Below, one piece after another: positions 2,917 through 33,693 of a stretch of 63,656 nucleotides of DNA (positions within the stretch are counted from its first letter, which is position 1; each line of letters begins with the position of its first letter). The stretch is from IMG/VR virus record IMGVR_UViG_3300017771_003653, positions 1 to 63,656 of that record; one strand, 5' to 3'. This DNA is from a virus. Its lineage: Duplodnaviria > Caudoviricetes. A program made the position numbers and the translations under genes. The notes under the pieces were generated by a model. The model saw nothing but the letters and a program-made list of their open reading frames with translations. It was not told where the DNA came from and ran no database searches.

Positions 2917-2921
2917 GTTAG

Positions 2922-3085: not shown

Positions 3086-3088
3086 TTC

Positions 3089-3595: not shown

Positions 3596-3624
3596 AACTA
3601 TTCTCCGTATTAACCATTCAATAT

Positions 3625-3632
3625 ATAAATAT
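3625..3632 (-). promoter_or_regulatory. Putative late promoter (class C, ATATTTAT)
   Basis: Same octamer upstream of sheath, tube and two other genes. Confidence 0.4.
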
Positions 3633-7783: not shown

Positions 7784-7792
7784 TTTGTTTTC

Positions 7793-8922: not shown

Positions 8923-8942
8923 TTTAAAAACCTTTATTTTGT

Positions 8943-8977
8943 TTATATATATCTTTTAAAAATGCGTTATTTAAATT
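8943..8977 (-). promoter_or_regulatory. Putative middle promoter (class B)
   Basis: AATTTAA...ATATATATAA with the same spacing as copies at 44880, 49236 and 63327. Confidence 0.5.
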
Positions 8978-8978
8978 T

Positions 8979-11129: not shown

Positions 11130-11130
11130 T

Positions 11131-18201: not shown

Positions 18202-19073
18202 TGATATTCTCCTGTAATCCAATTAAGTACATCTATTTTTGGCTCCCAGTCAAGTAACTCCATTGCTGTTCTATTATCTGAGCACCTCGTCTCTCTCATC
18301 TCTCCTGGTGTTGCTGGAATATATTTTGTTGGATAATCTTCACCAAATGCTGCTGCTAATTGATTTATTGAATAATTTTTTCCAGTTCCTAACTCCAGTG
18401 TCATTCCTGAAAACTTCATGTCAACTTCTCCCCACATTGCCCTTAGACATTTTTCTATTGCTTTTCCAATATCTTCAGCATGAATAAAGTCTCTTCTTTG
18501 TTCACCATCACCTGTAATTGTTAGCGGTCGTCCTTCTTTAAACAGCCTGTCAAAAACTCCTAGCACATTACAATATGCACCCTCAGTTGCTGCGTGAGGA
18601 CCAAATACATTATAAAATCTAGTTATGCACGAAGGGACATCGTATATCAAGCTATACATTTTTATAATTTCTTCAGCCTGATGTTTTGTGAATGTGTAAG
18701 GATTTGCCATTATATTTCCATGCACAGAAGATGTTCCTGCGTAAACTACTGGGATCTTATTTCTTCTTGCATCTTCCATTATATTGACAGTTGCAGCAAC
18801 ATTATTAGAAAAAGTCATTCTTGGCTTTTCAAAAGAAGGTTGTATTCTTGACATGCCTGCTAAATGTATTATTGCATCTGGCTTCTGTGCAAATATTGAT
18901 ATGTACTTTACAGTAGACAGATCTAAATCGTAATATTTGCATCCTTCTTGTTCATTCTCTTTTTTCCCTGTTGAATAATCATCAATTGAAGTTACATCGT
19001 AACCTTTCTTTAATAAAACTTTTATAACATTTGTACCTATAAAACCAGCGCCTCCTGTTACTAATATTTTCAT
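18186..19073 (-). CDS. NAD-dependent epimerase/dehydratase (UDP-glucose 4-epimerase-like)
   Basis: VTGGAGFIG, YTFTK, RFYNVFGP, GDGEQRRDFIH; start refined to MKILV. Confidence 0.85.
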   Translation of the reverse strand: MKILVTGGAGFIGTNVIKVLLKKGYDVTSIDDYSTGKKENEQEGCKYYDLDLSTVKYISIFAQKPDAIIHLAGMSRIQPSFEKPRMTFSNNVAATVNIMEDARRNKIPVVYAGTSSVHGNIMANPYTFTKHQAEEIIKMYSLIYDVPSCITRFYNVFGPHAATEGAYCNVLGVFDRLFKEGRPLTITGDGEQRRDFIHAEDIGKAIEKCLRAMWGEVDMKFSGMTLELGTGKNYSINQLAAAFGEDYPTKYIPATPGEMRETRCSDNRTAMELLDWEPKIDVLNWITGEYQCLEY

Positions 19074-19699
19074 CTTAATATCTCCGCGTATTTTTGATTT
19101 TGACTTTCTTGTTTTTGTATTGTTTTTGGGTGATACAAACACCACTGTTCTTCATAAGGTAAGAAAGCATCTTTTTTTGCACCGATAAGCCTTTCGTGAA
19201 CTGGTCTTACCCATTCAATATGATCTGCATTCTTATAAATTCTCTGTTGAGGATCTGGCCAGTTTACCCATCCGTTCTCTTCTACTCTCCAGTTCCACAT
19301 TTTAATATGATCATCTGTAAGACCTTCTACTGTGTTTACTCTTGGCACCCAATATAGTTCTACTTCTGGATTTGTTGATATAAGAGCTTTGATATTCTGC
19401 ATTAAAAACTGATTTGGTATTTCATCAGCATCTATATTAACAATCCAATCACCACTGCATTGTTTATTCATAAAGTTTTTATGAACTGAAAAGTCGCTAT
19501 ACAGTGCATGCTCTACAAATTTTATATGATGCCATTGATCATGTATGTATTCATCAAAAACATTCAATGTCTTATAATCAGAGTGATCGTCGATAATTAC
19601 TAATTCATCTTCAGGGTCTTTATTTTCAAGTATAAAGGGAATTAATTTTGCTATTTCTTTATGTTCGTTGTGTGTTGTAACCGCGTAACTTATTTTCAT
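19070..19699 (-). CDS. GT2-family glycosyltransferase
   Basis: ISYAVTTHNE, IIDDHSD, IDADE, PDPQQR, VHE. Confidence 0.8.
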   Translation of the reverse strand: MKISYAVTTHNEHKEIAKLIPFILENKDPEDELVIIDDHSDYKTLNVFDEYIHDQWHHIKFVEHALYSDFSVHKNFMNKQCSGDWIVNIDADEIPNQFLMQNIKALISTNPEVELYWVPRVNTVEGLTDDHIKMWNWRVEENGWVNWPDPQQRIYKNADHIEWVRPVHERLIGAKKDAFLPYEEQWCLYHPKTIQKQESQNQKYAEILR

Positions 19700-19705
19700 T
19701 TTCTT

Positions 19706-20401
19706 CTATATGTCATCCAAAGTTATATTTTTAGGTTTGTATAAATCCTTTGCTAATTGTGCTTTAAGCTGTTTTTTCATTTTTTCATTTTGCTGTTTCA
19801 AAAAAGCTTCATTGGATTCTTTAATTTGTTTCTCAACCTGTGGAGTGGTTGCATCTTTTGCTTCTTGCGTAACAAACTTGCTAATATACTCGCTTGGCCA
19901 ATCATAATCCCTATCTCTAAAAACTGATGATCTTTTTAATATATCCCAGCTAAATGTTCTATAAATTGAATTCTTTTCTAAAACTACTTTTAATTTGCTA
20001 TAACTTTTTTTTGCATTGCCTCGTGATAAATTAATTCTGTAGGCTTGGTCACCTATTGCATACTTTTCTGTTCCTGTTCTTTTTAACCCTAGATTTCTTT
20101 GCTCTTGATATGAAGAGTCATCTTCACTAGTCATTAATATTGCAGGTCCTAGTTGTTTAAATATTTTTTTTGCCTCTTCAGGTCTAATTTTTCTATTCCC
20201 TCTAGGTCTTGGAATAGCATCAAGTTGAAGTGCGTGTATTAGTCTTATTTTTTTACCATCGTTTCGAAGATACATGTGTCTCATATTCAGTATCAGGCAT
20301 GTCCTATTTCTACTTTTAGCATCTTTCTTCTTGCCCTTGTAACGAAAATTTACTATTTCGCCTTCTAAAATACCACCCCACTGTGTTCTTTGCTTAGCCA
20401 T
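19706..20401 (-). CDS. Hypothetical protein (basic)
   Basis: 231 aa ORF in operon. Confidence 0.55.
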   Translation of the reverse strand: MAKQRTQWGGILEGEIVNFRYKGKKKDAKSRNRTCLILNMRHMYLRNDGKKIRLIHALQLDAIPRPRGNRKIRPEEAKKIFKQLGPAILMTSEDDSSYQEQRNLGLKRTGTEKYAIGDQAYRINLSRGNAKKSYSKLKVVLEKNSIYRTFSWDILKRSSVFRDRDYDWPSEYISKFVTQEAKDATTPQVEKQIKESNEAFLKQQNEKMKKQLKAQLAKDLYKPKNITLDDI

Positions 20402-20828
20402 CTGTTATGTCTTTTGCTATTCCCATTTCTTTGCAAGCATCTAAAAATGTATTATAAGTACTTGCATTTTCTGTGTCTAGCATTGATGAATAGTTCGGCA
20501 TTGCTTCTCTCTTCTCTTCAGGTATAGGGATAGTTTTGGCATATTTCCATTGCCACTCATCTTCTGTTCCTTCTGGATAAATAATACCCAGCTTGCCCAT
20601 ATTGACAACAGAAGGACGCCACCAAATACCTTTTTCTTCGTCAAATTTTTTCAACTTATTAATTAAGATAGTACCGTCCTGTTCCATTTTATCTTCATTG
20701 TCTTTTGTAAATCTAGAATCACTCATAAATCCGCAATTAAAACACATATAGCTGCTATACTCTTCCTGCATTTCTTCGAAACAATGGTGTTCACTATTAC
20801 ATATCGGACACTTAATTACTCGTTCCAT
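20394..20828 (-). CDS. Hypothetical protein with Zn-ribbon
   Basis: CPIC...CFNCG. Confidence 0.55.
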   Translation of the reverse strand: MERVIKCPICNSEHHCFEEMQEEYSSYMCFNCGFMSDSRFTKDNEDKMEQDGTILINKLKKFDEEKGIWWRPSVVNMGKLGIIYPEGTEDEWQWKYAKTIPIPEEKREAMPNYSSMLDTENASTYNTFLDACKEMGIAKDITDG

Positions 20829-22099
20829 TATATTTTCTCCAATTTAGGAACATTTAGCTTTGGAAGTTTAACACCTACAGTCTCTGTAAATGCTGGCAAG
20901 TGCTGATTTAATATGTTACCCAGCAGCTCTGTCATTTTCTTTAAGCTAAATTTATTTCTGTTTGATCTAGATAGTTTTCCTGCTAGCTTCTTGTACTGAT
21001 TGTAGTTCTTTTTAGTTTCTTTCATAGCTAATCCAGCTTTTTGAATATCTACTTGAAACCATTGTTGTTCTTGAACCCATATTCCTTCTTGGAAACCACC
21101 TTCAGGAACTGGGATTAGATTACCTTCAAGTAATCTTGTATATTTAGGATTTAAGAAGTCAACATGACCACTCCAATTAGGAGCGATAACAGGCTTACCT
21201 GATAGTGATGCCTCTAGAAGTGGCCTTCCATATCCCTCACCGTGTGTAAAAGTTATATTTGCACTTACTTTTGGATGATTGTATAAATCATTCATTTCAG
21301 TATCATGAAGATCTCCGTGTAGCAAATAAACATTTGGGATGTCGTCATTAATAACAGATGTCCTAATATCATCTATTCTCCTTAACATATCTTCTCTGTC
21401 TAATCTAGATACGCTTGCTCCGCTAGATTTTAGTATAAGACCTGCACCTTGTTTCTTTTTAAATGTAGACATAAATGTTTTTACTAAGTTACCTACATCT
21501 TTCCTGTCCTGTCCTAAGTTTCCACCTAACCAGTGGCCGACAAATAGAAAGTTAAATTTTTCTTTTACATTGTCCATCTCTTTTTTAAGGTCTACAGAGC
21601 ATTCATTTGTTTTATGAAATATATTAGTGTCTGCACCTTCAAAAAATGTAACTATTGGTGTGGTTGCTGTGAGTGAAACACCGGTGTCATTATTCTTCCA
21701 TCCTGAGTTTCTCATTACATGTGCACCAAAATTAGAGCTGCATAAAACCAAATTCATTCTGTTAATTCCTTCTATCCAGTTTGAAGGTATTATTGTTGCT
21801 TCTAATCCCGCAGTAATTCCTATATTATATTTTCCGATCGGCTGAAATTCATTCGGTATAACAATATGAATATGCACATCAGGAGTTCCTCTGTCCCAAG
21901 GCTTTATGCACTCAATTATTTTTTGATCGTTTGGATCATCTGAGTTCAATGCATTTTGTGCAGTTGCTCCCCACGGAAGAGCGTTTATTGTAACATCGTA
22001 TTTGTCTAAGCCTATTAGTGACCTAACAACATCTCTTGATCTTGCACCGTAACCTGACCTTGTTGCTACTGGTGCTGAAACTAAAACCGTTGGCTTCAT
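20828..22099 (-). CDS. GT4-like glycosyltransferase
   Basis: TRSGYG, FLFVGHW, RKDV, GEGYGRPLLEA..GKPVI. Confidence 0.8.
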   Translation of the reverse strand: MKPTVLVSAPVATRSGYGARSRDVVRSLIGLDKYDVTINALPWGATAQNALNSDDPNDQKIIECIKPWDRGTPDVHIHIVIPNEFQPIGKYNIGITAGLEATIIPSNWIEGINRMNLVLCSSNFGAHVMRNSGWKNNDTGVSLTATTPIVTFFEGADTNIFHKTNECSVDLKKEMDNVKEKFNFLFVGHWLGGNLGQDRKDVGNLVKTFMSTFKKKQGAGLILKSSGASVSRLDREDMLRRIDDIRTSVINDDIPNVYLLHGDLHDTEMNDLYNHPKVSANITFTHGEGYGRPLLEASLSGKPVIAPNWSGHVDFLNPKYTRLLEGNLIPVPEGGFQEGIWVQEQQWFQVDIQKAGLAMKETKKNYNQYKKLAGKLSRSNRNKFSLKKMTELLGNILNQHLPAFTETVGVKLPKLNVPKLEKI

Positions 22100-23583
22100 T
22101 ATATCTCCTTCGTCATAGTTAAACCATTTTCTTTGATAACTTTTCTTCTCCAGTCAGTTCCATTTACCACAACCATTCTAGGTATTGGTTTGAAATTGTC
22201 GATTGTTTGTAGAATATCATGTGTAAATCTCTTTGACATTTCTGATGCTGTAAAACCGTATTCCGGATTTATAACATACTCATATCCTGCTTTTCCTCTC
22301 GCTTTAAGTTTTTCACCTCTTTCAGACCAAGCATTTTTCATCTGTATTGCAACATCTTGCCAGTCTGGTCTGTCATCTGAAATATACGGCGTAGGGATTG
22401 ATCCTTGAATAGATCTACTAGTTGGCCATACTGGAAATGCCCATTCGCCATGATCTTTGTAACGACCATCATGATTAGATCCCCACTCAGTTGTGTAGTC
22501 TTCATGTGTTAAATGAGTCCCATCTTCTTTTTTAAAGCCACAGTAGTCCTGCATACCGCCAGACACGTTTACAATTATAGGATTTCCTACCATCAAACTC
22601 TCTGCACCAGAAAGTCCAAATCCTTCATTTGAACTTATTAGTATTCCAACATCACCGATATTATAAAGAATATTCATTACTTCTCTATCATACTTTGTTG
22701 TTGAAAATATCACATCGTGTCCATTTCCGAGCTGTCTAACTACTTCAGGTAGATCTGTTCCGTTTTGGTCTGCAGGATCGCAGTGCATTAATAATGCACA
22801 TTTTTTAGCCTGTTCTTCTGTTAAAGAGTCACAAAATGCTCTGTACGCGTATACAATATCAGCAGGTAGTTTTCTCCTGATATTTCTTGCATTATAAAAT
22901 ATTACAAAGTCTTTTTCTTCACCTTTGAATATCTGTTCTTTTAATTCTGCTTTTGCTTTTTGTAATTTTTCATCACCTTCTGGAATTGGAAAGTAGTCTT
23001 GTTCACTTATTCCGTGAGGAATATAAGTAACTTGCCAATCTTCATATGAAGTCCTAACATTCTTAACAATATTAACTGTTTGCTTTGATATATTAAAAAG
23101 TGCATCTACAGAATCATAATACTTCTGATTCCATATTGGGTAAGGTAAATCATCCCAGATGTTGTAGTACATAATAGGAAGATGTGACCTGATCTCATGT
23201 TCCATCTGAAACAGCCATTCCCAGAATCTTGGGTCTGTATAGATCATTAATCCTTCTATTTCTGGATGTGCATTGAGAACCTGTCTTACAAGCTGTGGAC
23301 TTCCGTAACCACTGCAAGGATACATCCTTACAAAAGCACCTGGTACACCTGTTCTTTGTTGTGTATCTGCATCTAGATCAATTGCTTTTCCTTCATCAGG
23401 ATGCGTTATTGCACCGCCTATCTGTACCCAGTTAAAATGGTGTACTGTTCCCATAACAAACTCTTTAGACATGTTTCCTACACCTGAGGGCATTCTTAAA
23501 TCATCACTCAGTAGCAGAATTGTTTTCCGCTTGTTTGCTGGGAGGACTTCGTATCCGTTACGAATATCTCCTATCTTTAACAT
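22099..23583 (-). CDS. GT4-like glycosyltransferase
   Basis: SDDLRMPSGVG, IPHGI, RNIRRK, NEGFGLSGAESL..GNPII. Confidence 0.8.
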   Translation of the reverse strand: MLKIGDIRNGYEVLPANKRKTILLLSDDLRMPSGVGNMSKEFVMGTVHHFNWVQIGGAITHPDEGKAIDLDADTQQRTGVPGAFVRMYPCSGYGSPQLVRQVLNAHPEIEGLMIYTDPRFWEWLFQMEHEIRSHLPIMYYNIWDDLPYPIWNQKYYDSVDALFNISKQTVNIVKNVRTSYEDWQVTYIPHGISEQDYFPIPEGDEKLQKAKAELKEQIFKGEEKDFVIFYNARNIRRKLPADIVYAYRAFCDSLTEEQAKKCALLMHCDPADQNGTDLPEVVRQLGNGHDVIFSTTKYDREVMNILYNIGDVGILISSNEGFGLSGAESLMVGNPIIVNVSGGMQDYCGFKKEDGTHLTHEDYTTEWGSNHDGRYKDHGEWAFPVWPTSRSIQGSIPTPYISDDRPDWQDVAIQMKNAWSERGEKLKARGKAGYEYVINPEYGFTASEMSKRFTHDILQTIDNFKPIPRMVVVNGTDWRRKVIKENGLTMTKEI

Positions 23584-23594
23584 TTAAACTCCTA

Positions 23595-23798
23595 TCAATA
23601 ACCGTTTTTGTAATTTTCTTTTAACTCTTCTGTGGATTTGATTTTACTTGCGAAATCTTCGTCATTTAAGTAAAGCCACATTGCTCTATTAACTAATTTC
23701 TGAAGTGTAACATTTTCCATTCGTCCTTTGTTTTTGAATCCGTTGTAAACTTCAGTTAATAACTTAATAGATGTGAGCCTCCAAATATCAATACTCAT
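23595..23798 (-). CDS. Small putative ribbon-helix-helix DNA-binding protein
   Basis: LTSIKL strand followed by two helices (TLQKLVNRAMWLY). Confidence 0.45.
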   Translation of the reverse strand: MSIDIWRLTSIKLLTEVYNGFKNKGRMENVTLQKLVNRAMWLYLNDEDFASKIKSTEELKENYKNGY

Positions 23799-23849
23799 AC
23801 TTATTTCCTTTGTTGTATATACTATATATATCGTGTAAAAGTGGAAAGA

Positions 23850-24296
23850 TTATTTTTTATTGTAGTCAAAGTCGATAGAATCATTTCTTTTTTGCTTCTT
23901 ATTAGAAGTTACTTGTTCTTCGTTCTTTGACCTCATAAATCTAAAATGATCAATGATAAAATTCATTGACATTATAACATTTGTAGGTGCAGGCGCATTA
24001 CATGCAAACCTATATCTTCTTATATGTGCAATATCAGCAGGTGTGAAAGAATCTAAAAATACACTCTCAGACTTTGCTTTTTCCCATAGTTTAACAGTTG
24101 TCTTTAACTGCAAACTATCAGCATGCTTATCTGCTGATGCTGCTATTTGTTTTAAACTTTTTGAGTCTGACCCATGAAAACAGATCATAAATTCTCTTGC
24201 GCAAGCTTTCTTTGCTTCTTTTATATTATTCCATATAGCACTTTCATATTCTGTGCCTATAAAATCTTCGCCATTTATTCTAACTATTGGTATCAT
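23850..24296 (-). CDS. Hypothetical protein
   Basis: 148 aa ORF in operon. Confidence 0.55.
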   Translation of the reverse strand: MIPIVRINGEDFIGTEYESAIWNNIKEAKKACAREFMICFHGSDSKSLKQIAASADKHADSLQLKTTVKLWEKAKSESVFLDSFTPADIAHIRRYRFACNAPAPTNVIMSMNFIIDHFRFMRSKNEEQVTSNKKQKRNDSIDFDYNKK

Positions 24297-25173
24297 TTCT
24301 TCCCCTTATCACATATTTCTGGTGATTTAGCAAATTCACACCATTTACATTTTGTGTTTACACCAAGCTTTTCATATGTTGCTTCTGTCTTGTAACTTCC
24401 ATCTTCATTGAAACATTCATTAATAAATAGGTCAACTTGTTTAAAAATTCTATTAATTGACACACCTGCTGAAGGAGGTTCAAATCTCTGTATCCACTTT
24501 ACTGCCAGTCGCCTTTGTCCCATACAATCCTTTTAATGATTATAAACTCCACGTCAACCATAGATATGTCTACATTATACTTATCAGCAATAAACTTCTT
24601 ATAAAATAATAGCTGGCCTCGCTTCATAGGATCTGTCTTTTCTTTTTTCCATCCCATAGTAGAAGTTTTAAGATCAATTACTTTTATCTTTCCTGACTTT
24701 GTATTACGCATAAGAACATCAATATAACCTAACACTCCTACACTTTTGTATTTGTCTTCTATCGGAACCTCAATTCCTAATAATTCCCAGTTCTTTTTTG
24801 CAAAATAACTAGCTCTATTCTTCTTAAACCAGTCCAGAGCTTTTGCACCCTGTACACAGAATTCAGTTAATTGTGACTGTGTGGAGAAATGCTTTCCATC
24901 TGCATTCTTAACGCCTTCACTATAAAAATGCTTTAATTTGTCTACGAGCATATTTGGCATGTCTATTTCATCAGCTTTTTTAATTGAGTCTTCATACATT
25001 ACCGTCAAATAATGTTGTAAAACTTCATGTACTGCTTTTCCGTAAACTGTGTAAATAGAGTCTGTAAACTTTCTATTCTTATCAATATAATTTAGTTTCC
25101 ATTTAAATGGACACTGTGTATAGATTTGTACTTGAGACCAACTTATTTTGTTCATGATTGTACCTTTATTCAT
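24293..25173 (-). CDS. PD-(D/E)XK (RecB/Cas4-like) nuclease, split by a frameshift near 24505
   Basis: ISWSQ..QCP, YGKAVHE, GYIDVL, VIDLKTS in the first ORF; CKWCEF...C in the overlapping ORF 24293..24523. Confidence 0.75.
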
Positions 25174-25178
25174 GATAG

Positions 25179-25217
25179 AATCTAAGCCTTTTTCGTGTTA
25201 ATGTAAAGGACTTTTTT
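25179..25217 (-). promoter_or_regulatory. Putative early promoter (class A, copy 2)
   Basis: AAAAAAGTCC-TTTACA-N17-TAGATT. Confidence 0.65.
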
Positions 25218-25450
25218 CATAAACTTATAGATTCTGAATAGCAAGTCTCATTACAATAGTGCTTTATAGAGCATTTTTCAGAACCCCTTCTATCAGCCCT
25301 TAGTTCTTTTTCTTTTTTAGGCGGTTGAATTTCAAAACTAAAACCCTGAGGAGGAACAACAGTCCTTGTGTAAGGCAGCCATGCCATCTTTCCGCAACTT
25401 TGACATTTTCTCCTAATTTGTGGTCTTTTGTATTTTCTGGGTCTTCCCAT
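25217..25450 (-). CDS. Small Zn-finger-like protein
   Basis: CQSCG ... CSIKHYCNETC, basic N-terminus. Confidence 0.5.
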   Translation of the reverse strand: MGRPRKYKRPQIRRKCQSCGKMAWLPYTRTVVPPQGFSFEIQPPKKEKELRADRRGSEKCSIKHYCNETCYSESISL

Positions 25451-25725
25451 TATAACTGTCTCCTTGATTTTTGTACTACATAATCGTAGTGGTTTTTGTT
25501 TGAATTATATAATGCTTGAACATCTTCAAATTGAAAATGCTTCTTGCAGTAAAGTGTCTTTTTATCTAAATGATATAATAGTGGAAATTCATTATAGTCA
25601 TGTTGTGATTTTCTCTGGTCTACAAGCAAAAAGCTTTTTGCATCTGCATGTGCACATGTAATTTGTGTTAGTATAAAAGCCAAACAGCAAAACTGGAATA
25701 TTAACGTGGGTATGTATCTATTCAC
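25450..25725 (-). CDS. Hypothetical protein with possible signal peptide
   Basis: Hydrophobic N-terminus ending CAHA. Confidence 0.45.
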   Translation of the reverse strand: MNRYIPTLIFQFCCLAFILTQITCAHADAKSFLLVDQRKSQHDYNEFPLLYHLDKKTLYCKKHFQFEDVQALYNSNKNHYDYVVQKSRRQL

Positions 25726-25867
25726 TTCTTTGGCTAAGCTTTCGAAGCTTATAAGTACGCGCTTCTTTTTCTTTTGTCAAAACATAATCTCTAACTTGTT
25801 TACCTAGCATCATATCATTTGGATATTTGCTTACTAGTTCTTTAATCTTCTCATACTGTGTATTCAT
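25718..25867 (-). CDS. Small hypothetical protein (49 aa)
   Basis: MNTQYEKIKELVSKYPNDMMLGKQVR...; overlaps both neighbours. Confidence 0.45.
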   Translation of the reverse strand: MNTQYEKIKELVSKYPNDMMLGKQVRDYVLTKEKEARTYKLRKLSQRSE

Positions 25868-25968
25868 CTGTCTCTAAATTTTCCTTCGATTTTATCTGCT
25901 ATCCAATCAACTACATCTGTAGAAACTGCTAACAGACAGATTCCTAATGCCCATAATAATCCTTCCAC
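25864..25968 (-). CDS. Small hydrophobic peptide (34 aa, GTG start)
   Basis: Fills the gap with start/stop overlaps; LLWALGICLLAV. Confidence 0.3.
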   Translation of the reverse strand: MEGLLWALGICLLAVSTDVVDWIADKIEGKFRDR

Positions 25969-26333
25969 TACTTACCCCACTTTCCTCTTGCAACAATTGC
26001 TGCCATAATACCGTAATTTGATACATCAAGGTAAGCATCTTCCATAGATTCTTCAACAGCAGCTTTTCTTCCTCCCAGCAACAGTGTTTTTAGCCTTTGT
26101 ATTTTATCGTTCATTCTAAACCATAATCCTGTCAGAGATAAGTTAATTTCATCTTTTGTTGCCAATTGTGTTCCAACTGAAATATTCCCTGGACCGTAAT
26201 CATGTTGCTTCTTGCAGAATAAATCAAATTGTTGTTTTTGAATTATTTTAAATTCTGCTATCATTTTAGGATATGCTTGTTCTAGAACTGATTCTGCATC
26301 AGCCATTGTCATATCATTTTCTGTAACACTCAT
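25968..26333 (-). CDS. DUF1599 / nucleotide-modification-associated domain protein
   Basis: KKQHDYG, RMNDKIQRL, EDAYLDVSNY. Confidence 0.75.
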   Translation of the reverse strand: MSVTENDMTMADAESVLEQAYPKMIAEFKIIQKQQFDLFCKKQHDYGPGNISVGTQLATKDEINLSLTGLWFRMNDKIQRLKTLLLGGRKAAVEESMEDAYLDVSNYGIMAAIVARGKWGK

Positions 26334-26342: not shown

Positions 26343-26780
26343 TTATAAGCTCTCACAACTTATGTTATTATCGTTTAAAAACTTTATTCCTTCTATAATT
26401 CTGTATTCATCAATATACCAGACTTCTTTTATCCCTGATGCAACTATTAATTTTGCACAGTCAATACAGGGAGAAACTGATGTGTATAATACAGCATTTT
26501 TTGTTGATACACCACTTTGTGCTGCATAACCTATTGCATTAACTTCTGCATGTAATTCATTTAGAGGAGACCAGTCTTGATGACTTTTGTCATTTAGTGG
26601 TAATGCACCCCATTCATAAATGTGATCACAGTGCTGTTTTCCTGCCGGTACGCCATTCCATCCTGTAGATATTATCCTTCCGTCCCTTACAATTACACAT
26701 CCGACTTGTGTTGATGCGCATGTTGACATTACCTCTGTTCTTTTTAATATGTCAGTAAAATAACCTTTGTAATTTGGCAA
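26343..26780 (-). CDS. dCMP deaminase
   Basis: VGCVIV, STGWNG, HAEVNAI, SPCIDC Zn motif. Confidence 0.9.
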   Translation of the reverse strand: MPNYKGYFTDILKRTEVMSTCASTQVGCVIVRDGRIISTGWNGVPAGKQHCDHIYEWGALPLNDKSHQDWSPLNELHAEVNAIGYAAQSGVSTKNAVLYTSVSPCIDCAKLIVASGIKEVWYIDEYRIIEGIKFLNDNNISCESL

Positions 26781-26781
26781 T

Positions 26782-27144
26782 TTAGCCCTCTTTAAGTCTT
26801 TCTTCTACTTTTTTAGATTTATTTTTAAACATATTATAAACTTCATCGACTGTAAATCCGTTTACAATTATTAATCCTAAAAGAAACTTCATCACATCAA
26901 TACTTTCTTCTAAAAGTCTATCTCTTGCGTCTGTAGGTAGATTCATCTTTTTATGCATTTTCCAGTCAACCTCATTTAGTACTTCAGTTGATTCTGCTAT
27001 TAAAGCAAGTATGTATTCTTTATTCCACTTTACTAGCATGTGTTTATTATTTCTGACTTGCTTTAGTGTAAGATCTTGCTTTTCTTTAAAGAACTTTTCA
27101 GTAAATGCTTCTTGTATTTTGTAAATTTCTTCTAACTTATCCAT
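26782..27144 (-). CDS. All-alpha NTP pyrophosphatase (dimeric dUTPase/dCTPase or MazG-like)
   Basis: AESTEVLNEVDWK and EESID acidic metal-binding motifs. Confidence 0.75.
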   Translation of the reverse strand: MDKLEEIYKIQEAFTEKFFKEKQDLTLKQVRNNKHMLVKWNKEYILALIAESTEVLNEVDWKMHKKMNLPTDARDRLLEESIDVMKFLLGLIIVNGFTVDEVYNMFKNKSKKVEERLKEG

Positions 27145-28057
27145 CTTCTTCCTCTATTATGTGTGCAGAATGCATTGATATATCAAGAGACATTTCATCC
27201 TGATCTTCTATTTCTAAATGATTTTTTACGAACCTTGACATGTAAATTAAGAATTTTAAGTCAAATGAAAATGTATCGATTGTATTTGAAGATCTGCATG
27301 TTGCATAAAATGATAGTCTGTCCTTCCTAAACATTGTGTGGAACAAAGATATGCATGTTGGTTCTGTATGTATAAATCTTCTTGTTGTTATTGGTTTTTG
27401 TTTTGATTTATACTCATTCTTTCCATTTACTTCTTTGTCTATGTTTGTTATAACATCATTTAGAATTTGTTTATAATACTTGCCTTCTATTTCGTCATCC
27501 ATAACATCTTTAAGCAATTCAACATCATAGCTTTTTAAGTCTACTTGAAGTTTGACAGGATGTGCTTCATTATCTGATGCAGATGCTATTTCTGCAATAT
27601 CGTTTGCAATGCTATCTATATCTGATGTTTCACAGTCTGCTAGCCATGCGATACATAGTGCAGTTATCTCTTCTACTGATCCTTCTATATTTTCTAGCAA
27701 TCCCATAGTAGGATAATCAGAATATAGCTTTGCATTTTTCTTAAAAATCTCATAAAGCTCTATTAGAGACTTTTTATTTTGTTTGTCATCACCTCTCTTG
27801 TCGTATCTTTCAAGTATGACATCAAGTGGTGGTATTACAACAATCATTCTGTCATTTAAGTTTTGAAGCCTGTCTCTTAATCTTTTATGCCAAATATCAG
27901 TATTTCTACCGTACATTTCTGCGTAGCAAAGCATACTAAGTTCAGATCTGTCCTGTATGTTCCACCTATAACCTGTTGCTGAGTGTATTGCTTCAAAAAG
28001 AGTTGTTTTTCCAGATAAATCTGGACCTTCTAGTGTAACATTATTTAGTCTAAGCAT
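27137..28057 (-). CDS. dNMP kinase fused to a thymidylate-synthase-like domain
   Basis: EGPDLSGKTT P-loop and DRS; C-term RRFI..EPTCISLFH...CRSSN...FSFDL...HSAHI. Confidence 0.7.
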   Translation of the reverse strand: MLRLNNVTLEGPDLSGKTTLFEAIHSATGYRWNIQDRSELSMLCYAEMYGRNTDIWHKRLRDRLQNLNDRMIVVIPPLDVILERYDKRGDDKQNKKSLIELYEIFKKNAKLYSDYPTMGLLENIEGSVEEITALCIAWLADCETSDIDSIANDIAEIASASDNEAHPVKLQVDLKSYDVELLKDVMDDEIEGKYYKQILNDVITNIDKEVNGKNEYKSKQKPITTRRFIHTEPTCISLFHTMFRKDRLSFYATCRSSNTIDTFSFDLKFLIYMSRFVKNHLEIEDQDEMSLDISMHSAHIIEEEDG

Positions 28058-28058
28058 A

Positions 28059-31000
28059 TTATATGTTTAATTGGCTTATTTTTGCACAACTCGAAGACAT
28101 ACCCCATTGTGGGTCATGATGAACTTCGCCTACGCACAAAGTATATTTTTCAGGTTCTTTACCTTCAAGAAAAGTACCCCAAAGTCTTAGCCATCCTGTG
28201 TTATTTAAATTATCCATTATTTTAAACCGCCAAAACGTTTTACCGTTCTTCGTTTTCTTTTTAATTTTATCAACTAAGCAAAACCAAGACATTAATTTAG
28301 ATCCTGGTGGTATTGCCATTGTAGAAGTTACATTATGAACATTAATTTGCTGTATTACTTCATCAGGAAATAACAATTTTCCATTTGCTGTTTGCGTCAT
28401 GTCCATATAGTTTTCTATCTTTTCAATTCTTGTCCAATCTTCAACATCTTCATACTTTGCAACTAGTTGAGTGAGTATTTGTTCAGGCTGGATACCTTTT
28501 TTAGTTTCTCTTGCATATTGAGTTTTTGTAAGACCGTATGGACCTTTTCTAAGCTGTTCATAATTCTTTTCGTCTGTTAATATTAATTGAAGTTGATTAT
28601 GATTCTTTATTTCACCATTTTGTAATTCACCAAAAGATGAAAATGCTTCTACAGCGCACAATGATTTAAGTGCAGTCTTATTAAATTTTGACCATCTCCA
28701 AACGCCATCACTATCCCATAGAAATTCTCTTAAACTCTTAAATGGTCGTTTTTCTATTAACTCATTCATTGCAACGTCACCAACACCTTTTACAGATGAA
28801 AGCGGTGGAACAAATGCTTTAATCTCAGAAGAGTATTCCCATTCCTTACCTGAATAGTTAGCGTCTGGATCAATAAATGAGTAGCCATAAGATTTTATTT
28901 CTGCTATTGTTTTTTGTAGTCCTTTTGGGTTGTTATTTTCAGACTGTAGTACTGTTCCTAGCCATTCTTCTTCATGATATGTATGCAACCATGCTGAATA
29001 GTAAGAATCGATAGCATAAGCAATTGCATGTGACTTATTAAAACCATACACTGAGAATGCTTCGATTGTTTCCCATAATGCAACTGTTATTTTTTCATCT
29101 ATATTGTGAAGTTTTTTAGCACCTTTTACAAATTTTTGTTTTGCCAATTCTCTTTCAGACGCCTTACCATCTAATGTGTCAAGTGACTTCTTAACAAGTG
29201 TCTTTCTAAGTTTATCAGATTCACCTGGAGTAAATCCTGCTAGTTTTTGTGCAAGTAACATAAACTGTTCTTGAAATATTACAAAATTAAAAGTAGGTCC
29301 TAACACTTCTTTGATTACTGGGTGGTCGTATATTATATTTGCAGCATTCTTCTTAGCTTTTACAAATTTTTGATGAACATTAGCTTTTAATGGTCCAGGC
29401 CTGTAGATTGCTGTCAATGCACCTAATGTTTCTATGTCTGTTGGCTTTGCATTTAAGCAGAATTTTCTTGCACCTTCAGCTGTAAACTGGAATATTGCAG
29501 TAAACTTTCCTTCTTCATAAACATGTTTCCAAACCTTTGGGTCTTCTTGAGTATTTGTTCTACAATTTAAGTGCTTATCAAAGAAGTCTCTGATTTGTAA
29601 GAATGACGGTTCTTTTATTCCTTGCTTTACTAATATTCTTCTAATACAGTTTTCTACATCTTTTAAAAGTGTTAATCCTAAGAAGTCAAACTTTAGAAAT
29701 CCGTTATCTTCAAGGTGTCTAAAATTCATACCTTCTGTCCACGGAGTTTGAAGCTCACCTCTTACAGAAATCAATGGCATACAAGATTCTATATCACCTT
29801 CTGTTGCAACTATAACACCACCTGCATGTCTACCTATTGACCTGTTTTCCATAAAAAGAGTTTCTACATGCCTGCCGACATCTTCATGCTTTTCCATAAA
29901 TTCACGATACTTTTTAGAGTATTTCATACAGTCAGCATGTTTTAGAACAAATACTGATTTTTCTTCATCTTCGTTTCTTGCATGAGGCATTACTTCTTCT
30001 TGCAAGCCATTCATAAGTGTATTGACATCAGAAAACGGTATTCCATAAAATTTACAAATGTCTTTTACGAGAGATTTTAATTTAAGTGTATTGAAGTTTG
30101 ATACTGGTATAACAGCATCTTCACCAAACAATTCACGTGATGCTTCTATTAATGCATCTCTGTCTCCAGCATCTGTATCAATATCTGGCCATGAAACTCT
30201 GTGTCTTCCTAAGAATCTTGACCATAGCAAACCGTAAGGTAGGGGATCAATCTGTGTTATTCCTAAAAGAAAGTTTACTAAACTTCCAGATCCTGATCCC
30301 CTGCCAGGTCCGAAAAGAGTCTTATCGCGTGCCTTCTCAAATATTTTGTACATTGATATAAAATAAGACTCATGTCCTAAGTACTTAATGTCTGCTAATT
30401 CTTCTTTACACCTGTCGATGTATTCTTGTTTTTTGTCTAGGTCTTCTCTTACTAAGCCTTCTTTGACTAGATCAACAAGCATATTAAATGCAGGTTTTTC
30501 TGTTGATCCAAATGTTGGCAACTTCGCAGTTTTATCAATCCACGTGTCTTCACATAAATCCCAAGCAATATCGTGAGTTCTGTTTATTGAGTCACGAACA
30601 TCTTCTTCATAACCTTTGTAGAAGTCGTATTCTTGGTAGTTATCACTAAATTCATCCCACATCTGCTGTGCATTCTTAGGATATAGCAAGCATTTGAGAT
30701 CTTCTTCTTTTGGCAAAACCATTTTTGTAGGATCATTGCTAAACCAGCCTAGTTTCTTATATAGCTCGCGTGCTTCCCACTTATCAGGGCTAGGAAAATG
30801 TGAATCTGCTGTAGAGATTAGCTTTATACCTGTATCCCTAGAAAGATCTAGTAACATTCTATTTGTCATGTGCTGTGCAGATAATTTATTGAACTGTAGC
30901 TCTAAGAAGAAGTTTTCTTGTCCAACACAGTCAACAAAATAGTCAGTCATATTTTTTAATCTACCCATTACTGTATTATATTTTAATGAGTCGTTCAATA

Positions 31001-31691
31001 AGTCTGGGTGGAATTGATCGAATGTCTTGTCTTGAAATTCATTATAAATAATTCCAGATGCCAAACCACCAACACATGCAGTAGAAACTACAAGTCCTTC
31101 ACCGTGTTCTTTAAGCATTTCAAAGTCAATTCTAGGAAACCTATAAAAGCCGTGTTTGTAAGATTTTTTAACAAGAGTGAAAAGATTAGATAAGCCTGTT
31201 CTGTTTTTTGCAACAACAACTAAGTGATAATATCTCTTCCATGCCGGCTTTCCTTTTGCTGATCCTTTTGTTTCTTCTTCATCTTCTAAAACATGTCCGC
31301 CGGCTTTAATCTCAGCCTCTGCTTCTACTATGACAGGAGACTTAGAAAGCTTTTCTTTCTTCTTTGCATCTCTTTCAGCTTGCACTGCTTCACGATGATT
31401 TTCGTACTGTTCTTTCCATGTTTTTAATGAAGGGACAAAATAAAACTCTACACCATATAACTGCCTGTATTTTCTACCTGTTTTTTTCATTAACTCAGCA
31501 TGTTGATTTGCATGTGCTAGACCGGAACCTTGTCCATGATCTGTCAATGCCCAAGAATCTCCTCCTTGTGCCTCACTAGTTATGAAGTCAATATGCTCTT
31601 TTGGATAACCTAGACCATCAAACGTACTGAAAGAAGTATGCGCATGAAGTCCAGTGAATTGTGTTGGTGGTTGTATATTTTTCAAAGACAC
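28059..31691 (-). CDS. dnaE: DNA polymerase III alpha subunit (family C)
   Basis: PHP LHAHT/LTDHG/ADSH, GPGRGSGSGS, WPDIDTD, GRHAGG, KFDFLGL, YRPGP, YGFNKSHA. Confidence 0.95.
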   Translation of the reverse strand: MSLKNIQPPTQFTGLHAHTSFSTFDGLGYPKEHIDFITSEAQGGDSWALTDHGQGSGLAHANQHAELMKKTGRKYRQLYGVEFYFVPSLKTWKEQYENHREAVQAERDAKKKEKLSKSPVIVEAEAEIKAGGHVLEDEEETKGSAKGKPAWKRYYHLVVVAKNRTGLSNLFTLVKKSYKHGFYRFPRIDFEMLKEHGEGLVVSTACVGGLASGIIYNEFQDKTFDQFHPDLLNDSLKYNTVMGRLKNMTDYFVDCVGQENFFLELQFNKLSAQHMTNRMLLDLSRDTGIKLISTADSHFPSPDKWEARELYKKLGWFSNDPTKMVLPKEEDLKCLLYPKNAQQMWDEFSDNYQEYDFYKGYEEDVRDSINRTHDIAWDLCEDTWIDKTAKLPTFGSTEKPAFNMLVDLVKEGLVREDLDKKQEYIDRCKEELADIKYLGHESYFISMYKIFEKARDKTLFGPGRGSGSGSLVNFLLGITQIDPLPYGLLWSRFLGRHRVSWPDIDTDAGDRDALIEASRELFGEDAVIPVSNFNTLKLKSLVKDICKFYGIPFSDVNTLMNGLQEEVMPHARNEDEEKSVFVLKHADCMKYSKKYREFMEKHEDVGRHVETLFMENRSIGRHAGGVIVATEGDIESCMPLISVRGELQTPWTEGMNFRHLEDNGFLKFDFLGLTLLKDVENCIRRILVKQGIKEPSFLQIRDFFDKHLNCRTNTQEDPKVWKHVYEEGKFTAIFQFTAEGARKFCLNAKPTDIETLGALTAIYRPGPLKANVHQKFVKAKKNAANIIYDHPVIKEVLGPTFNFVIFQEQFMLLAQKLAGFTPGESDKLRKTLVKKSLDTLDGKASERELAKQKFVKGAKKLHNIDEKITVALWETIEAFSVYGFNKSHAIAYAIDSYYSAWLHTYHEEEWLGTVLQSENNNPKGLQKTIAEIKSYGYSFIDPDANYSGKEWEYSSEIKAFVPPLSSVKGVGDVAMNELIEKRPFKSLREFLWDSDGVWRWSKFNKTALKSLCAVEAFSSFGELQNGEIKNHNQLQLILTDEKNYEQLRKGPYGLTKTQYARETKKGIQPEQILTQLVAKYEDVEDWTRIEKIENYMDMTQTANGKLLFPDEVIQQINVHNVTSTMAIPPGSKLMSWFCLVDKIKKKTKNGKTFWRFKIMDNLNNTGWLRLWGTFLEGKEPEKYTLCVGEVHHDPQWGMSSSCAKISQLNI

Positions 31692-31716
31692 GTATTTTTA
31701 CCTTATTTATAGTTGT

Positions 31717-31755
31717 AACTTAACACTTTTTCATGAATAAGTAAAGGACTTTTTT
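31717..31755 (-). promoter_or_regulatory. Putative early promoter (class A, copy 3) for dnaE
   Basis: AAAAAAGTCC-TTTACT-N17-TAAGTT. Confidence 0.65.
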
Positions 31756-32737
31756 AATAAAAGTCCAATAAATTTACATTTTTTTGTTTTGCTTCTTCAA
31801 GATACTGAAGTGGGTTATAGCCCACATTTCCTTGTACAGCATGACAGATACTATTCCAAGCATCCCTCAGACCTTGATCTAATGTAAATTTTGGCTGCCA
31901 TCCTGTCATCGCCTTGAACTTTCTAGCAGATAGCCTATGGTGACCTAAGTAGTCTGTCTCTGGATGCCAAGTAATTAGCTTATTTAGATCTTCACCTGCA
32001 ATTACTGACATCATATCAACAATTTCTCTTGTCACAATTGGTGTTTCTGCAGCGACATTATAATCTTCACCTCTGTGATTTTCGTTTGCACAAACAATTG
32101 CAACTGCATCACAAAAGTCACTTACATGTAAATAGTCTTTTATCTTTTGAGGATCTAAGAACATATCTATATTATCTTTTTTAGCAAAATAACCATAGAA
32201 AGTTTTTGCAATTAAAGAGTTCATGTCTCCTACACCGCCAAATGCAAAAAGTGGTCTAACAATTGACCAGTCATTTGCGTAAGACTTGACAAGATTCTCA
32301 CCTAATAATTTTAAGTGACCATAGTAAGTATGAGGACCTCTTTGTGAACCTTCTACTATACTTTCTTCTTGATATTTAAACGTATCGTAAATTACAGATG
32401 TCCCTAAATAGATGATTGGTATTTTTAGTTTATTCGCAACTCTTGTTAAACTGTAAGTGCCTGTTACATTTGAGCTTGTTGCTCTTTCAGGATCAAGACC
32501 TACAACATCAGTTCCTACAACAGCAGCATTGTGAATTAAAATGTCAACTTCTAATTCTTGCAATACTTTCTTCCAAACATCTTCACTATTTGTGTAAACA
32601 TCTAGTTCGTTATTATTTGTAAAGTTTAAGTCTAAATGTCTTTCATCTGTAAATACTGTTTGTATTCCCTGCCGCTCTAGTGCAGCAGGGAGATTCTTTC
32701 CTATAAATCCATTGTGTCCAGTTATAAATGCTCTCAT
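31754..32737 (-). CDS. NAD-dependent epimerase/dehydratase (extended SDR)
   Basis: ITGHNGFIG, HNAA, GTSVIYD, YGHLK catalytic motif, DYLHVSD. Confidence 0.85.
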   Translation of the reverse strand: MRAFITGHNGFIGKNLPAALERQGIQTVFTDERHLDLNFTNNNELDVYTNSEDVWKKVLQELEVDILIHNAAVVGTDVVGLDPERATSSNVTGTYSLTRVANKLKIPIIYLGTSVIYDTFKYQEESIVEGSQRGPHTYYGHLKLLGENLVKSYANDWSIVRPLFAFGGVGDMNSLIAKTFYGYFAKKDNIDMFLDPQKIKDYLHVSDFCDAVAIVCANENHRGEDYNVAAETPIVTREIVDMMSVIAGEDLNKLITWHPETDYLGHHRLSARKFKAMTGWQPKFTLDQGLRDAWNSICHAVQGNVGYNPLQYLEEAKQKNVNLLDFY

Positions 32738-33693
32738 TTCTTACCTAAAAAGTCATATCTTTCATATGCTTGTCTTCTTAGGTCTTCAATTTCAGCATCA
32801 ACTTCTGCTATCTTTTCCATGAATGTATTTCGTCCACCTTCAGTACCATTTAGATCTTCACGTGTTGACTGATATAAGAAGTCGTTTTCATTATATTCGA
32901 ACTCATCAGAATCAGCATCTGGCCAGTATAAGTTTGTGCCTGTACCAGTCCTTGCTGTAGAAATATAGTATCTTGCAGGTGTGTGAATATCAATACAGTC
33001 AACAATCATTGGATATTGCCTGACCAATTCTAACCACATGTAATAAGCAACTAGATTGTCTTCTGTTGGCTGGATTTGCTTGTCAATGCGTGTCTTAATA
33101 AAAGCCATTACATCTCTTATGTTTCCTCTTGCCCAGTAAAATGTGCTTAAGCACTTAGGTAATATATGTCTAGCATCCATAACAGAAATCTCTTTAGTGT
33201 CAACCATATCTGCATATAATTGCTTTGTGTCGTTAACTAATTGTTTATAACGTTCTGCCATTTCAGGTGAGTTTATTATTGCATGTGGTATAACAGCATC
33301 ATCATTTCTTTGTGATCTATCACCTGTGCACTGTGCTGAAAAACTAAATGCACGGTGTCTAATTAAGTGTGTAACAAATTGTGTGTCAACACCTTCAATT
33401 GTAAAAGTACAATTAATTGTTTCGAATGCTGTTGGTAATAGTTTACCATTAAAAAGCATCCAGATCATTTTATCTTTTTCATAGTTTGATAATGATCCCT
33501 TGTTAAATGGTTGTTCTGCCCATGTAGCTGTGCAGAAGTCTGGTATATAGTTTCTTAATTCTTCTATAGACGGACAACTTACTAGTTTTGTCTTTATAGA
33601 GTCTAAGTGATCATGAAACTCTGTTTTTATCGGTTCATCAAACCCCAACCCAGTTGGAAGTTCAACTACTGATAGTTCATTATTAATTGGCAT
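32734..33693 (-). CDS. Divergent ThyX-like flavin-dependent protein
   Basis: AFETINCTFTIEG, THLIRHRAFSFSAQC, DARHILP; the RHRx7S Ser is Cys. Confidence 0.75.
   Translation of the reverse strand: MPINNELSVVELPTGLGFDEPIKTEFHDHLDSIKTKLVSCPSIEELRNYIPDFCTATWAEQPFNKGSLSNYEKDKMIWMLFNGKLLPTAFETINCTFTIEGVDTQFVTHLIRHRAFSFSAQCTGDRSQRNDDAVIPHAIINSPEMAERYKQLVNDTKQLYADMVDTKEISVMDARHILPKCLSTFYWARGNIRDVMAFIKTRIDKQIQPTEDNLVAYYMWLELVRQYPMIVDCIDIHTPARYYISTARTGTGTNLYWPDADSDEFEYNENDFLYQSTREDLNGTEGGRNTFMEKIAEVDAEIEDLRRQAYERYDFLGKK

Follow-up and report, generated by a model that had tools for sequence, protein, structure and literature searches.

We analysed a 63,656-bp virus record from IMG/VR (IMGVR_UViG_3300017771_003653), referred to over its whole length as the window, and in particular one gene on its minus strand in which a nucleotide kinase is joined to a small domain of thymidylate synthase (TS) fold. 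The record is 34% complete according to CheckV, has a GC content of about 34% and carries all of its long open reading frames (ORFs) on the minus strand. Tail sheath, tail tube and baseplate proteins were identified in Pfam scans, and the window is therefore a fragment of a large myovirus. The source is an uncultured marine giant phage. The fusion ORF and its two domains are located as follows (aa, amino acids; dTMP, deoxythymidine monophosphate).

27137..28057, minus strand: fusion ORF, kinase plus minimal TS-like domain, 306 aa plus stop
27626..28057, minus strand: P-loop nucleotide kinase domain, residues 1-144, YorR/dTMP-kinase-like (structure and profile matches)
27140..27625, minus strand: minimal TS-fold domain (C-domain), residues 145-306, 162 aa (predicted model, Foldseek, VIA and hhalign)

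A second assembly, a 6,805-nt contig of the DNA run X3, covers positions 26538-33342 with 8 substitutions and no indels, and leaves the fusion ORF intact. Homologs of the fusion numbered 219 at E<=1e-3, and among the matches listed nearly all are 296-322 aa and full length. Given the intact ORF in the X3 contig and the full length of nearly all relatives, the fusion is not an assembly or frameshift artefact. The motifs quoted for this protein in an earlier note, which was made from the DNA letters alone, are all present and in the same order: the P-loop LEGPDLSGKT at residues 9-18, TTRRFIHTEPTCI at 224-236, LSFYATCRSSNT at 248-259, TFSFDLKFL at 262-270 and SMHSAHIIE at 294-302. An AlphaFold2 model of the whole 306-aa protein, based on a 42-sequence alignment, had a pLDDT (predicted local distance difference test) of 93.7 and a pTM (predicted template modelling score) of 0.88.

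The part following the kinase had been taken for a TS-like domain of about 140 aa. Folded by itself with an alignment (A2) of 44 unaltered translations, it gave a model with a pLDDT of 94.8 and a pTM of 0.90, and AlphaFold2, Foldseek and VIA agree on the TS fold. The domain is heavily reduced, as had been said, but its length is about 162 aa (residues 145-306), with an extra helix and strand ahead of the RRF motif. In a Foldseek search of the PDB, AfhB of phage HY126 came out on top (9iqu, 2.8e-7; 9iqc, 2.1e-6, the latter in complex with deoxycytidine monophosphate, dCMP, and flavin adenine dinucleotide, FAD), and thymidylate synthases started at 1.2e-5. There were 367 matches at E<=1e-3, and those listed all belong to the TS family. 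The VIA wide structure search, which uses an aligner independent of Foldseek, covered 48,161 representative chains; seven of these reached Z>=8, all of the TS family, and the next chain had a Z of 5.2. The highest score was that of 9iqc (Z 11.4, with 146 of 234 residues aligned at a root-mean-square deviation, rmsd, of 3.6), followed by ThyA (10.0, 10.0 and 9.9), MilA (9.8), a plant DHFR-TS (9.4) and T4 dCMP hydroxymethylase (8.2). The Pfam TS model PF00303 had no match at E<=1 for the fusion protein, nor any in the whole window record, and a single-sequence phmmer search of the fusion protein against the PDB returned noise only.

A homodimer of the C-domain was predicted with an interface score (ipSAE) of 0.77, compared with 0.01 for the best control; the contacts agreed across three runs, and the pLDDT of the partner was at least 90. 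The mark used here for a dimer is reached by 20 out of 30 solved homo-pairs and by 1 out of 23 single chains, and the result for this domain may partly mirror its resemblance to solved TS dimers. In the predicted dimer, R226 of one copy contacts R255/S256 and S297 of the other copy, as in TS.

For the alignment of active-site residues, hhalign profiles were built from 181 sequences of the fusion family, 121 of the RB69 gp48 family, 121 of the T4 gp42 family and 79 of the E. coli-type ThyA. The fusion family aligned to the gp48 family, i.e. to 5-hydroxy-dCMP (5hodCMP) synthases, with a probability of 96.3% (E 1.8e-9, 77 columns, gp48 residues 135-227), to the gp42 family with 91.6% (E 8e-7) and to ThyA with 40% (E 3e-4), a ranking which is indicative only, because the three reference sets differ in diversity. 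Family profiles were needed here, as hhalign comparisons of the fusion alignment A1 with the single RB69 gp48 and gp45 sequences were weak (5%; 80% over 23 columns). All three family alignments have an identical register. They reproduce the by-eye alignment to ThyA given in the earlier note, including the 11-residue spacing from R to D, and place the residues concerned on the TS active site, an agreement far outside what chance would give. These are listed below; conservation was counted over 181 unique full-length family members.

27377..27382, minus strand: codons of Arg226-Arg227 (ThyA R126/R127, phosphate-clamping residues that reach across the dimer); Arg 180/181 each
27362..27364, minus strand: codon of Glu232 (ThyA L143 position, 3 residues ahead of Cys; hhalign against ThyA and gp48)
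27353..27355, minus strand: codon of Cys235, predicted catalytic nucleophile (ThyA C146; aligned with C148 of T4 dCMP hydroxymethylase and with the AfhB Cys); Cys 179/181
27284..27295, minus strand: codons of Arg255-Ser256-Ser257-Asn258 (ThyA R166-S167-C168-D169); R and S 179/181 each
27260..27262, minus strand: codon of Asp266 (ThyA N177, T4 dCMP hydroxymethylase D179, the cytosine-selecting residue); Asp 181/181
27161..27169, minus strand: codons of Ser297-Ala298-His299 (SAH, as in gp48 and AfhB; SLH in T4 gp42); S 176, A 164 and H 179 of 181

Two substitutions relative to ThyA had been pointed out beforehand, a cytosine-type Asp at the Asn177 position and an Asn at the Asp169 position. The former is fixed in the family; the latter occurs in the window protein but is no family trait, the counts at residue 258 being 91 Asp, 76 Asn and 14 Glu. 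Residue 232 is variable as well (D 59, Q 42, E 28, S 21, H 18). Expressed in ThyA terms, E232/N258/D266 of the window protein is L143E/D169N/N177D. In our own alignments the gp48 family has E/N/D at these positions in 121/121 members and the gp42 family D/D/D in 121/121. Arg244 (Cys+9) is common to the gp48 and gp42 families (121/121 each); in ThyA this position is Ala. When the A2 profile of the C-domain was run against all PDB sequences, T4 dCMP hydroxymethylase was found at E 0.0018 and 0.044 and AfhB at 0.11, with zero ThyA at E<=10; the matches above noise are cytosine-specific TS homologs only.

According to Lee et al. (NAR 2026, PMC13326640), 5-hydroxy-dCMP is made from dCMP by TS homologs, among them RB69 gp48 and DLP3 gp80; these synthases carry flavin, 18O of O2 was found in the product, and a deoxynucleoside monophosphate (dNMP) kinase is required for 5-hydroxy-dCMP to reach DNA. 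In the same paper N177D together with L143E is given as the mark of dCMP use with a non-methyl product, D169N is proposed as diagnostic for 5hodCMP synthases, and a bulky hydrophobic residue at the L143 position is linked with methyl products (PMC13326640). Its Table 1 has a YorR/dTMP-kinase-like 'nucleotide kinase' gene 2-3 genes from the synthase gene (DLP3 078 vs 080, RB69 045 vs 048, RL38JI 214 vs 216). The 'non-standard chemistry' on a cytosine nucleotide suggested in the earlier note has a precedent there, in the flavin- and O2-dependent 5-hydroxylation of dCMP by TS homologs in which N177 is replaced by Asp and D169 by Asn (PMC13326640); for the present domain such a reaction is proposed by analogy.

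The 5hodCMP synthases (HY126 AfhB 9iqu/9iqc, RB69 gp48, DLP3 gp80, RL38JI gp216) are both the best structural and the best profile match to the C-domain. The window protein shares with them the Cys, Arg-Arg, Arg-Ser, Asp(N177), Asn(D169), Glu(L143), the Arg at Cys+9 and SAH, and its chain likewise ends soon after SAH. They are encoded near a YorR/dTMP-kinase-like kinase, and YorR is also the best match of the kinase half of the window protein. In contrast, they are 217-238 aa long compared with 162 aa here, and the sequences align over the C-terminal half only. All 120 listed gp48 relatives carry PF00303, which the window domain does not match. The window domain is also fused to its kinase, the fusion family does not conserve the Asn and the Glu, and the gene adjoins a DnaE-type polymerase, not a T4-type one. 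The first descriptions of dCMP-hydroxylating TS-fold enzymes date, to our knowledge, from 2025-2026, and all those described to date are free-standing proteins of about 230 aa from cultured phages.

Among TS homologs, T4 gp42 (1b49, 1b5d, 6l18) is likewise specific for cytosine, and its product goes to a phage dNMP kinase. It has the Cys, RS, Asp(N177) and Cys+9 Arg in common with the C-domain, of which it is the best solved-sequence match. It differs in being folate-dependent, in its length of 246 aa, in the Asp that occupies its D169 as well as its L143 position, in being separate from its kinase gp1 (of another kinase family), and in a structural Z of just 8.2. With ThyA (E. coli, PF00303) the domain has in common the fold, the homodimer with a shared active site (predicted here), the catalytic Cys and the equivalents of R126/R127 and R166/S167. 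ThyA differs by its uracil-specific Asn177, Leu143 and Asp169, by a length of 264 aa and by the low hhalign probability, and the window phage makes dTMP with ThyX instead. The C-terminal tail of ThyA closes over folate. Much of the folate-binding region had been supposed to be lost, and folate-site elements do appear to be missing; about 100 residues of ThyA are absent, and the tail is short (the fusion chain ends 7 residues past SAH, T4 gp42 30 past and ThyA 57 past).

The kinase domain contains a Walker A motif (G11-T18), D36-R37, R84 and R88-G89-D90, and G11-T18, D36-R37, R84 and R88 are invariant in 181/181 family members. Its best structural match in VIA is YorR of the B. subtilis prophage SPbeta (2axp; Z 14.1, rmsd 2.7, 139 residues aligned); next come a deoxyadenosine kinase from a mycoplasma (2jaq) at Z 13.4 and several dTMP kinases at Z 12.0-12.5. 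The fusion-family profile found YorR among PDB sequences at E 7.3e-8. The domain stayed under the cut-offs of the Pfam dTMP-kinase model PF02223 (17.8 bits, cut-off 27 bits) and of NCBIfam TIGR00041 (20.6 bits, cut-off 83.25). The N-domain is thus a kinase of the dNMP/dTMP-kinase fold, but no typed dTMP kinase. Fold, P-loop, DR motif and Arg-rich lid are common to it, YorR (2axp, 3kb2) and the dTMP kinases, from which it differs by bearing the C-terminal TS-like domain. We know of no established substrate of YorR itself. A comparison with the RB69 gp45 family profile (hhalign 94.2%, E 1.1e-7, 105 columns) had a doubtful register, and was counted as shared P-loop kinase ancestry only. Kinase and synthase being one chain in the fusion family is a classic hint of joint function.

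The genes around the fusion which bear on nucleotide metabolism and DNA modification are the following.

32734..33693, minus strand: ThyX flavin-dependent thymidylate synthase (PF02511, E 5.8e-20)
28059..31691, minus strand: DnaE-type DNA polymerase III alpha, directly upstream of the fusion (TIGR00594, E 2.8e-164; Pfam DNA_pol3_alpha, PHP and finger domains)
26782..27144, minus strand: all-alpha NTP pyrophosphohydrolase, MazG/dimeric-dUTPase-like (PF08761, E 1.1e-8; phrog_173)
26343..26780, minus strand: dCMP deaminase (PF00383, E 7.5e-23; phrog_174, E 2.3e-50)
25968..26333, minus strand: DUF1599 ('nucleotide modification associated domain 1') protein (PF07659, E 1.1e-7)
22099..23583, minus strand: GT-B (GT1/GT4, BshA-like) glycosyltransferase, candidate DNA sugar transferase (PF00534, E 5.3e-7; PF20706 'GT4-conflict', E 1.3e-5)

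DnaE, the fusion, the MazG-like protein, dCMP deaminase and DUF1599 form a tight run on the same strand, in which the DnaE stop and the fusion ATG are 1 base apart and the start of the MazG-like gene overlaps the end of the fusion by 8 nt. Upstream are genes for an epimerase, ThyX, an HD 5'-deoxynucleotidase-like protein and a nucleoside 2-deoxyribosyltransferase. Because ThyX supplies dTMP, the TS-like domain is dispensable for thymidylate. Judged by its sequence, the MazG-like protein is a candidate dCTPase/dUTPase which could supply dCMP; its similarity to the RB69 gp56 dCTPase is local, over 27 aa only (E 5e-4). The glycosyltransferase lies 3.5 kb downstream of the fusion, and its BshA match is weak (E 6.3e-7) and under the cut-off. 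No second dNMP kinase turned up in Pfam scans of the window.

The neighbourhood was also sampled in 74 related viral loci, on contigs of up to 284 kb, within 10 kb around the fusion. DnaE adjoins the fusion or lies within this distance in 72 of the 74 loci; dCMP deaminase was found in 57, nucleoside deoxyribosyltransferase in 33, ThyX in 28 and a MazG-like gene in 19. Clustering of ORFs over 75 sources (the 74 loci and the window) gave thymidine kinase in 56, a superoxide dismutase (SOD)-like protein in 43, DHH phosphoesterase in 33, pterin-4a-carbinolamine dehydratase in 18 and GMP reductase in 15. The pterin-4a-carbinolamine dehydratase and Fe/Mn-SOD-like genes lie a few kb downstream of the fusion (e.g. 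L023:19887-20300 and L027:14558-15262) and have no member in the window; any tie between them and oxygen or pterin chemistry is speculative.

Seventeen fusion-bearing viral records, two of them 100% complete (about 240-284 kb), were searched whole with PF00303 and none had a match over the cut-off; one record had a sub-threshold match (12.6 bits, E 0.004). The fusion is thereby the only TS-superfamily gene detected in 17/17 related records so searched. According to a preprint (10.1101/2024.12.05.627091), cytosine-modified contigs are marked by an N177D TS homolog that has a dCMP deaminase no more than 3 kb away (70% vs 6.1%). The screen described there would miss the fusion family, because a PF00303 match was required.

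The C-domain is also found by itself. Its profile was searched against 1.84 billion representative proteins (50% identity), giving 385 matches at E<=1e-3, 159 at E<=1e-10 and 76 at E<=1e-30. The best 150 of the 385 are mostly fusions of about 300 aa, together with some complete proteins of 166-228 aa which consist of the minimal domain only. Stand-alone proteins from viral metagenomes (e.g. P0240, P0257 and L169:6001-6546; C-domain profile E about 1e-12 to 1e-17) have the same domain and the same motifs (E..YY, SRR, C-I-S, R, RSSD, D, GS[AL]H), and no Pfam family was found in the four that were scanned. Viral contigs were scanned with a 6-sequence alignment of the stand-alone form, and genes for it were located in four loci (L169, L170, L171 and L172). 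A gp42-type dCMP hydroxymethylase gene is directly upstream in 4/4 loci (hmmsearch E 1e-98 to 1e-101; signature D/C/D/D), and a kinase like the fusion N-domain (E 7.7e-9 to 1.7e-6) is encoded two genes upstream in 3/4. The record of L169 also has a true ThyA, and in L169:4759-9812 the stand-alone gene is followed by a HAD-phosphatase-like gene and an NTP-transferase/APH fusion. The same HAD-phosphatase/NTP-transferase-APH architecture occurs in the sugar-activating AfhF/AfhE and in DLP3 gp81/gp82 (PMC13326640). This context implies that the minimal domain belongs to cytosine-hypermodification clusters, where it is probably no second hydroxymethylase.

No example from a cultured phage was found, as a tblastn search of the fusion protein against 50,697 GenBank phage records gave no match at E<=1e-5. 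BFVD had no full-length match to the fusion (best TMq 0.40, all matches single-domain); both collections may lack records close to the genome of the window. Full-text searches of the available literature (main texts; of the jumbo-phage review PMC7824862, the passages on thymidylate synthase) found no description of a kinase-minimal-TS fusion.

From the computed fold, aligned active-site residues, conservation, predicted dimer and gene context we infer a substrate, cofactor, product and channelling. We are confident, short of certainty, that the fusion is bifunctional, an active dNMP kinase joined to an active enzyme acting on C5 of a cytosine nucleotide. That the C-domain product is 5-hydroxy-dCMP we hold more tentatively, by analogy to AfhB and RB69 gp48 and at slightly short of even confidence. 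The fusion gene would then encode an enzyme of pre-replicative cytosine modification. The dimeric minimal TS domain would bind dCMP, with Asp266 reading the cytosine and the phosphate held by Arg255/Ser256 and by Arg226'/Arg227' of the partner subunit. Cys235 would attack C6 and so make C5 nucleophilic, enabling it to take up a substituent, which would most likely be a hydroxyl from a flavin hydroperoxide, as in AfhB/RB69 gp48, giving 5-hydroxy-dCMP. The YorR/dTMP-kinase-like domain would phosphorylate the modified dNMP to the diphosphate, and after the triphosphate step the adjacent DnaE would incorporate it. The MazG-like NTPase (putatively a dCTPase) would act together with the dCMP deaminase on the composition of the pool, with ThyX making dTMP.

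Several results weigh against this reading. The residue regarded as diagnostic, 258, is unstable in the family: on a FastTree tree it requires at least 19 changes (200 label shuffles: mean 68.7, minimum 60), and Asp is found in a protein 82% identical to that of the window. Residues 232 and 258 are uncoupled as well (E/N 16, E/D 11, D/N 25, D/D 27, Q/D 29). Since the two vary independently, the published signature does not partition the fusion family, and the match of the window protein to it may be incidental. The C-domain is about 75 residues shorter than AfhB/gp48, and hhalign against the gp48 family aligns the C-terminal 77 columns only, with a 16-residue deletion ahead of the Cys. When the profile is simply searched against sequences, the folate-dependent T4 hydroxymethylase, and not AfhB, ranks first among the solved relatives. 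Finally, only 151 nt of the fusion gene lie under a contig from an RNA library, and transcription is not proven thereby.

Either residue 258 is nearly neutral in the fusion family, or the product or cofactor differs among members. In 15 matched pairs of Asn258 and Asp/Glu258 proteins no second position shifts consistently, residue 261 (27275-27277) being a partial exception; it is acidic in 39/76 Asn258 proteins vs 7/105 Asp/Glu258 proteins, counts in which kinship is controlled in the 15 matched pairs only. On these sequence counts it looks as if the carboxylate was relocated by three positions, from 258 (27284-27286) to 261, rather than lost. Residue 258 was also tabulated against the gene neighbours, namely the MazG-like gene (N 3/41, D 15/21, E 3/8), ThyX (N 7/41, D 16/21) and pterin dehydratase (N 5/41, D 7/21, E 6/8). 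These counts were not used as evidence, because kinship among the sources and the truncation of loci at contig ends confound them.

The same variation lends itself to another explanation, in which dCMP is the substrate but the C5 reaction is an undescribed one, or the cofactor is neither flavin nor folate (e.g. reduced pterin and O2), and the product may vary by member. The absence of about 75 residues of AfhB and about 100 of ThyA fits with it, as do the free and independent variation of residues 232 and 258, which are diagnostic in the known branches, the acidic residue 261 going with Asn258, the pterin-4a-carbinolamine dehydratase and SOD-like genes within 10 kb, and the stand-alone relatives, which directly follow a gp42-type gene and presumably do something else. 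However, nothing points positively to any particular alternative chemistry, the flavin hydroxylase is closest both in structure and in profile, and the neighbour associations are subject to the confounding just described, so that we consider it rather unlikely, although worth keeping in mind. Slightly more doubtful still is the broader proposal that the minimal TS scaffold is a distinct branch of pyrimidine C5 chemistry, in which different phages may make different cytosine derivatives or employ a non-flavin, non-folate cofactor; the putative cofactor-facing residues 258, 232 and 261 have switched many times in the family. A folate-dependent dCMP hydroxymethylase of the T4 gp42 kind, fused to a kinase and making 5-hydroxymethyl-dCDP, would account for the rank of T4 dCMP hydroxymethylase among solved sequences, for the gp42 family alignment, for Asp at the D169 position in 91/181 and at the L143 position in 59/181 members, and for the shared Arg at Cys+9. 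We find it improbable, as the window protein has Asn258 and Glu232 instead of the Asp/Asp of all gp42-family members, its chain stops far earlier past SAH than those of T4 gp42 and ThyA, and T4 dCMP hydroxymethylase is the weakest of the seven TS-family structure matches; moreover, a true gp42-type gene immediately upstream of the stand-alone relatives in 4/4 loci argues against a duplicate hydroxymethylase.

Liu and Santi reportedly found in 1992 that TS becomes a dCMP methylase when N177 is changed to Asp, and a dCMP methyltransferase (Xp12-like) making 5-methyl-dCMP would be in line with the fixed Asp266. The adjacent dCMP deaminase also fits the pattern of 5-methylcytosine phages in the MetaGPA preprint. 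With a polar or acidic residue (D, Q, E, S, H) at the L143 equivalent in nearly all members, and with folate-site elements apparently missing, this is the least probable of the explanations. The TS-like domain could, on the other hand, be non-catalytic, i.e. a dCMP-binding, regulatory or dimerising module of a general phage dNMP kinase, or the kinase could phosphorylate something other than a 5'-phosphate. The heavy reduction of the domain, the resemblance of the kinase half to general phage dNMP kinases, the lack of another dNMP kinase in the Pfam scans of the window and a 5-hydroxymethyldeoxyuridine DNA kinase among the weaker BFVD matches (E 1.3e-3) would agree with this. Yet the Cys, both Arg clamps, Ser, Asp and His are near-invariant in 181 sequences (down to about 30% identity), as purifying selection on catalysis predicts, and the stand-alone forms keep the same residues without a kinase; we regard a non-catalytic role as very improbable.

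If the preferred reading, a bifunctional enzyme of cytosine modification, holds, then a modified cytosine, most likely 5-hydroxycytosine by analogy to the known synthases, is probably made for the phage DNA. The fusion is a much smaller version of the TS fold, joined to a nucleotide kinase and undetected by the Pfam TS model. Surveys of cytosine-modifying phages based on PF00303 would not count the fusion phages, because this model misses the domain. If, further, the distinct branch were real, modified cytosine would be widespread in the DNA of marine and freshwater phages and invisible to Pfam-TS screens. An active domain would be the smallest TS-fold enzyme known to us, would represent a natural hand-over of substrate between a base-modifying enzyme and its kinase, and would be a compact tool for placing modified cytosine in DNA in vivo. 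The free variation of the diagnostic residues offers a direct route to testing what sets product and cofactor in the TS superfamily. In environmental giant phages the fusion appears to be kept as a core gene, and it adjoins the replicative polymerase gene in nearly every related viral contig.

The remainder of the window holds further features. The glycosyltransferase at 22099..23583 belongs to a run of about 19 kb (4346-23583, minus strand) of sugar-nucleotide and glycan genes, which is unusual for a phage. It encodes epimerases/dehydratases of the GDP-mannose 4,6-dehydratase type, a DegT aminotransferase, a carbamoyltransferase, GT10 and GT11 fucosyltransferase-like proteins, several GT2 and one GT1/GT4. 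Its products may decorate the DNA, the virion or the surface of the host. On the glycan side the only ORFs shared with related loci are in the region 19070-26333, and with just 3 of them. Beyond this run, or within it, the regions 767-4352 and 7793-8922 (minus strand) contain a 2-oxoglutarate (2OG)-Fe(II) oxygenase (1455-2000, weakly FlmC-like), two methyltransferase-like ORFs, a staphylococcal-nuclease homolog and a transketolase split over two ORFs.

In the replication region, a 908-aa ORF at 35708-38434 (minus strand) combines CarboxypepD_reg with a TonB-dependent receptor plug (SusC-like), which hints at a Bacteroidota host or at a carried host-type gene. A 433-aa ORF at 47919-49220 (minus strand) has a sub-threshold match to family-A DNA polymerase (24.3 bits, cut-off 34.3), in addition to the DnaE-type polymerase of the phage. 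Contigs of the DNA runs X3 and X11 have one extra G after base 24503 of the window, at the 3' end of a PD-(D/E)XK nuclease ORF (24499-25173), and the window may be 1 base off at this point.

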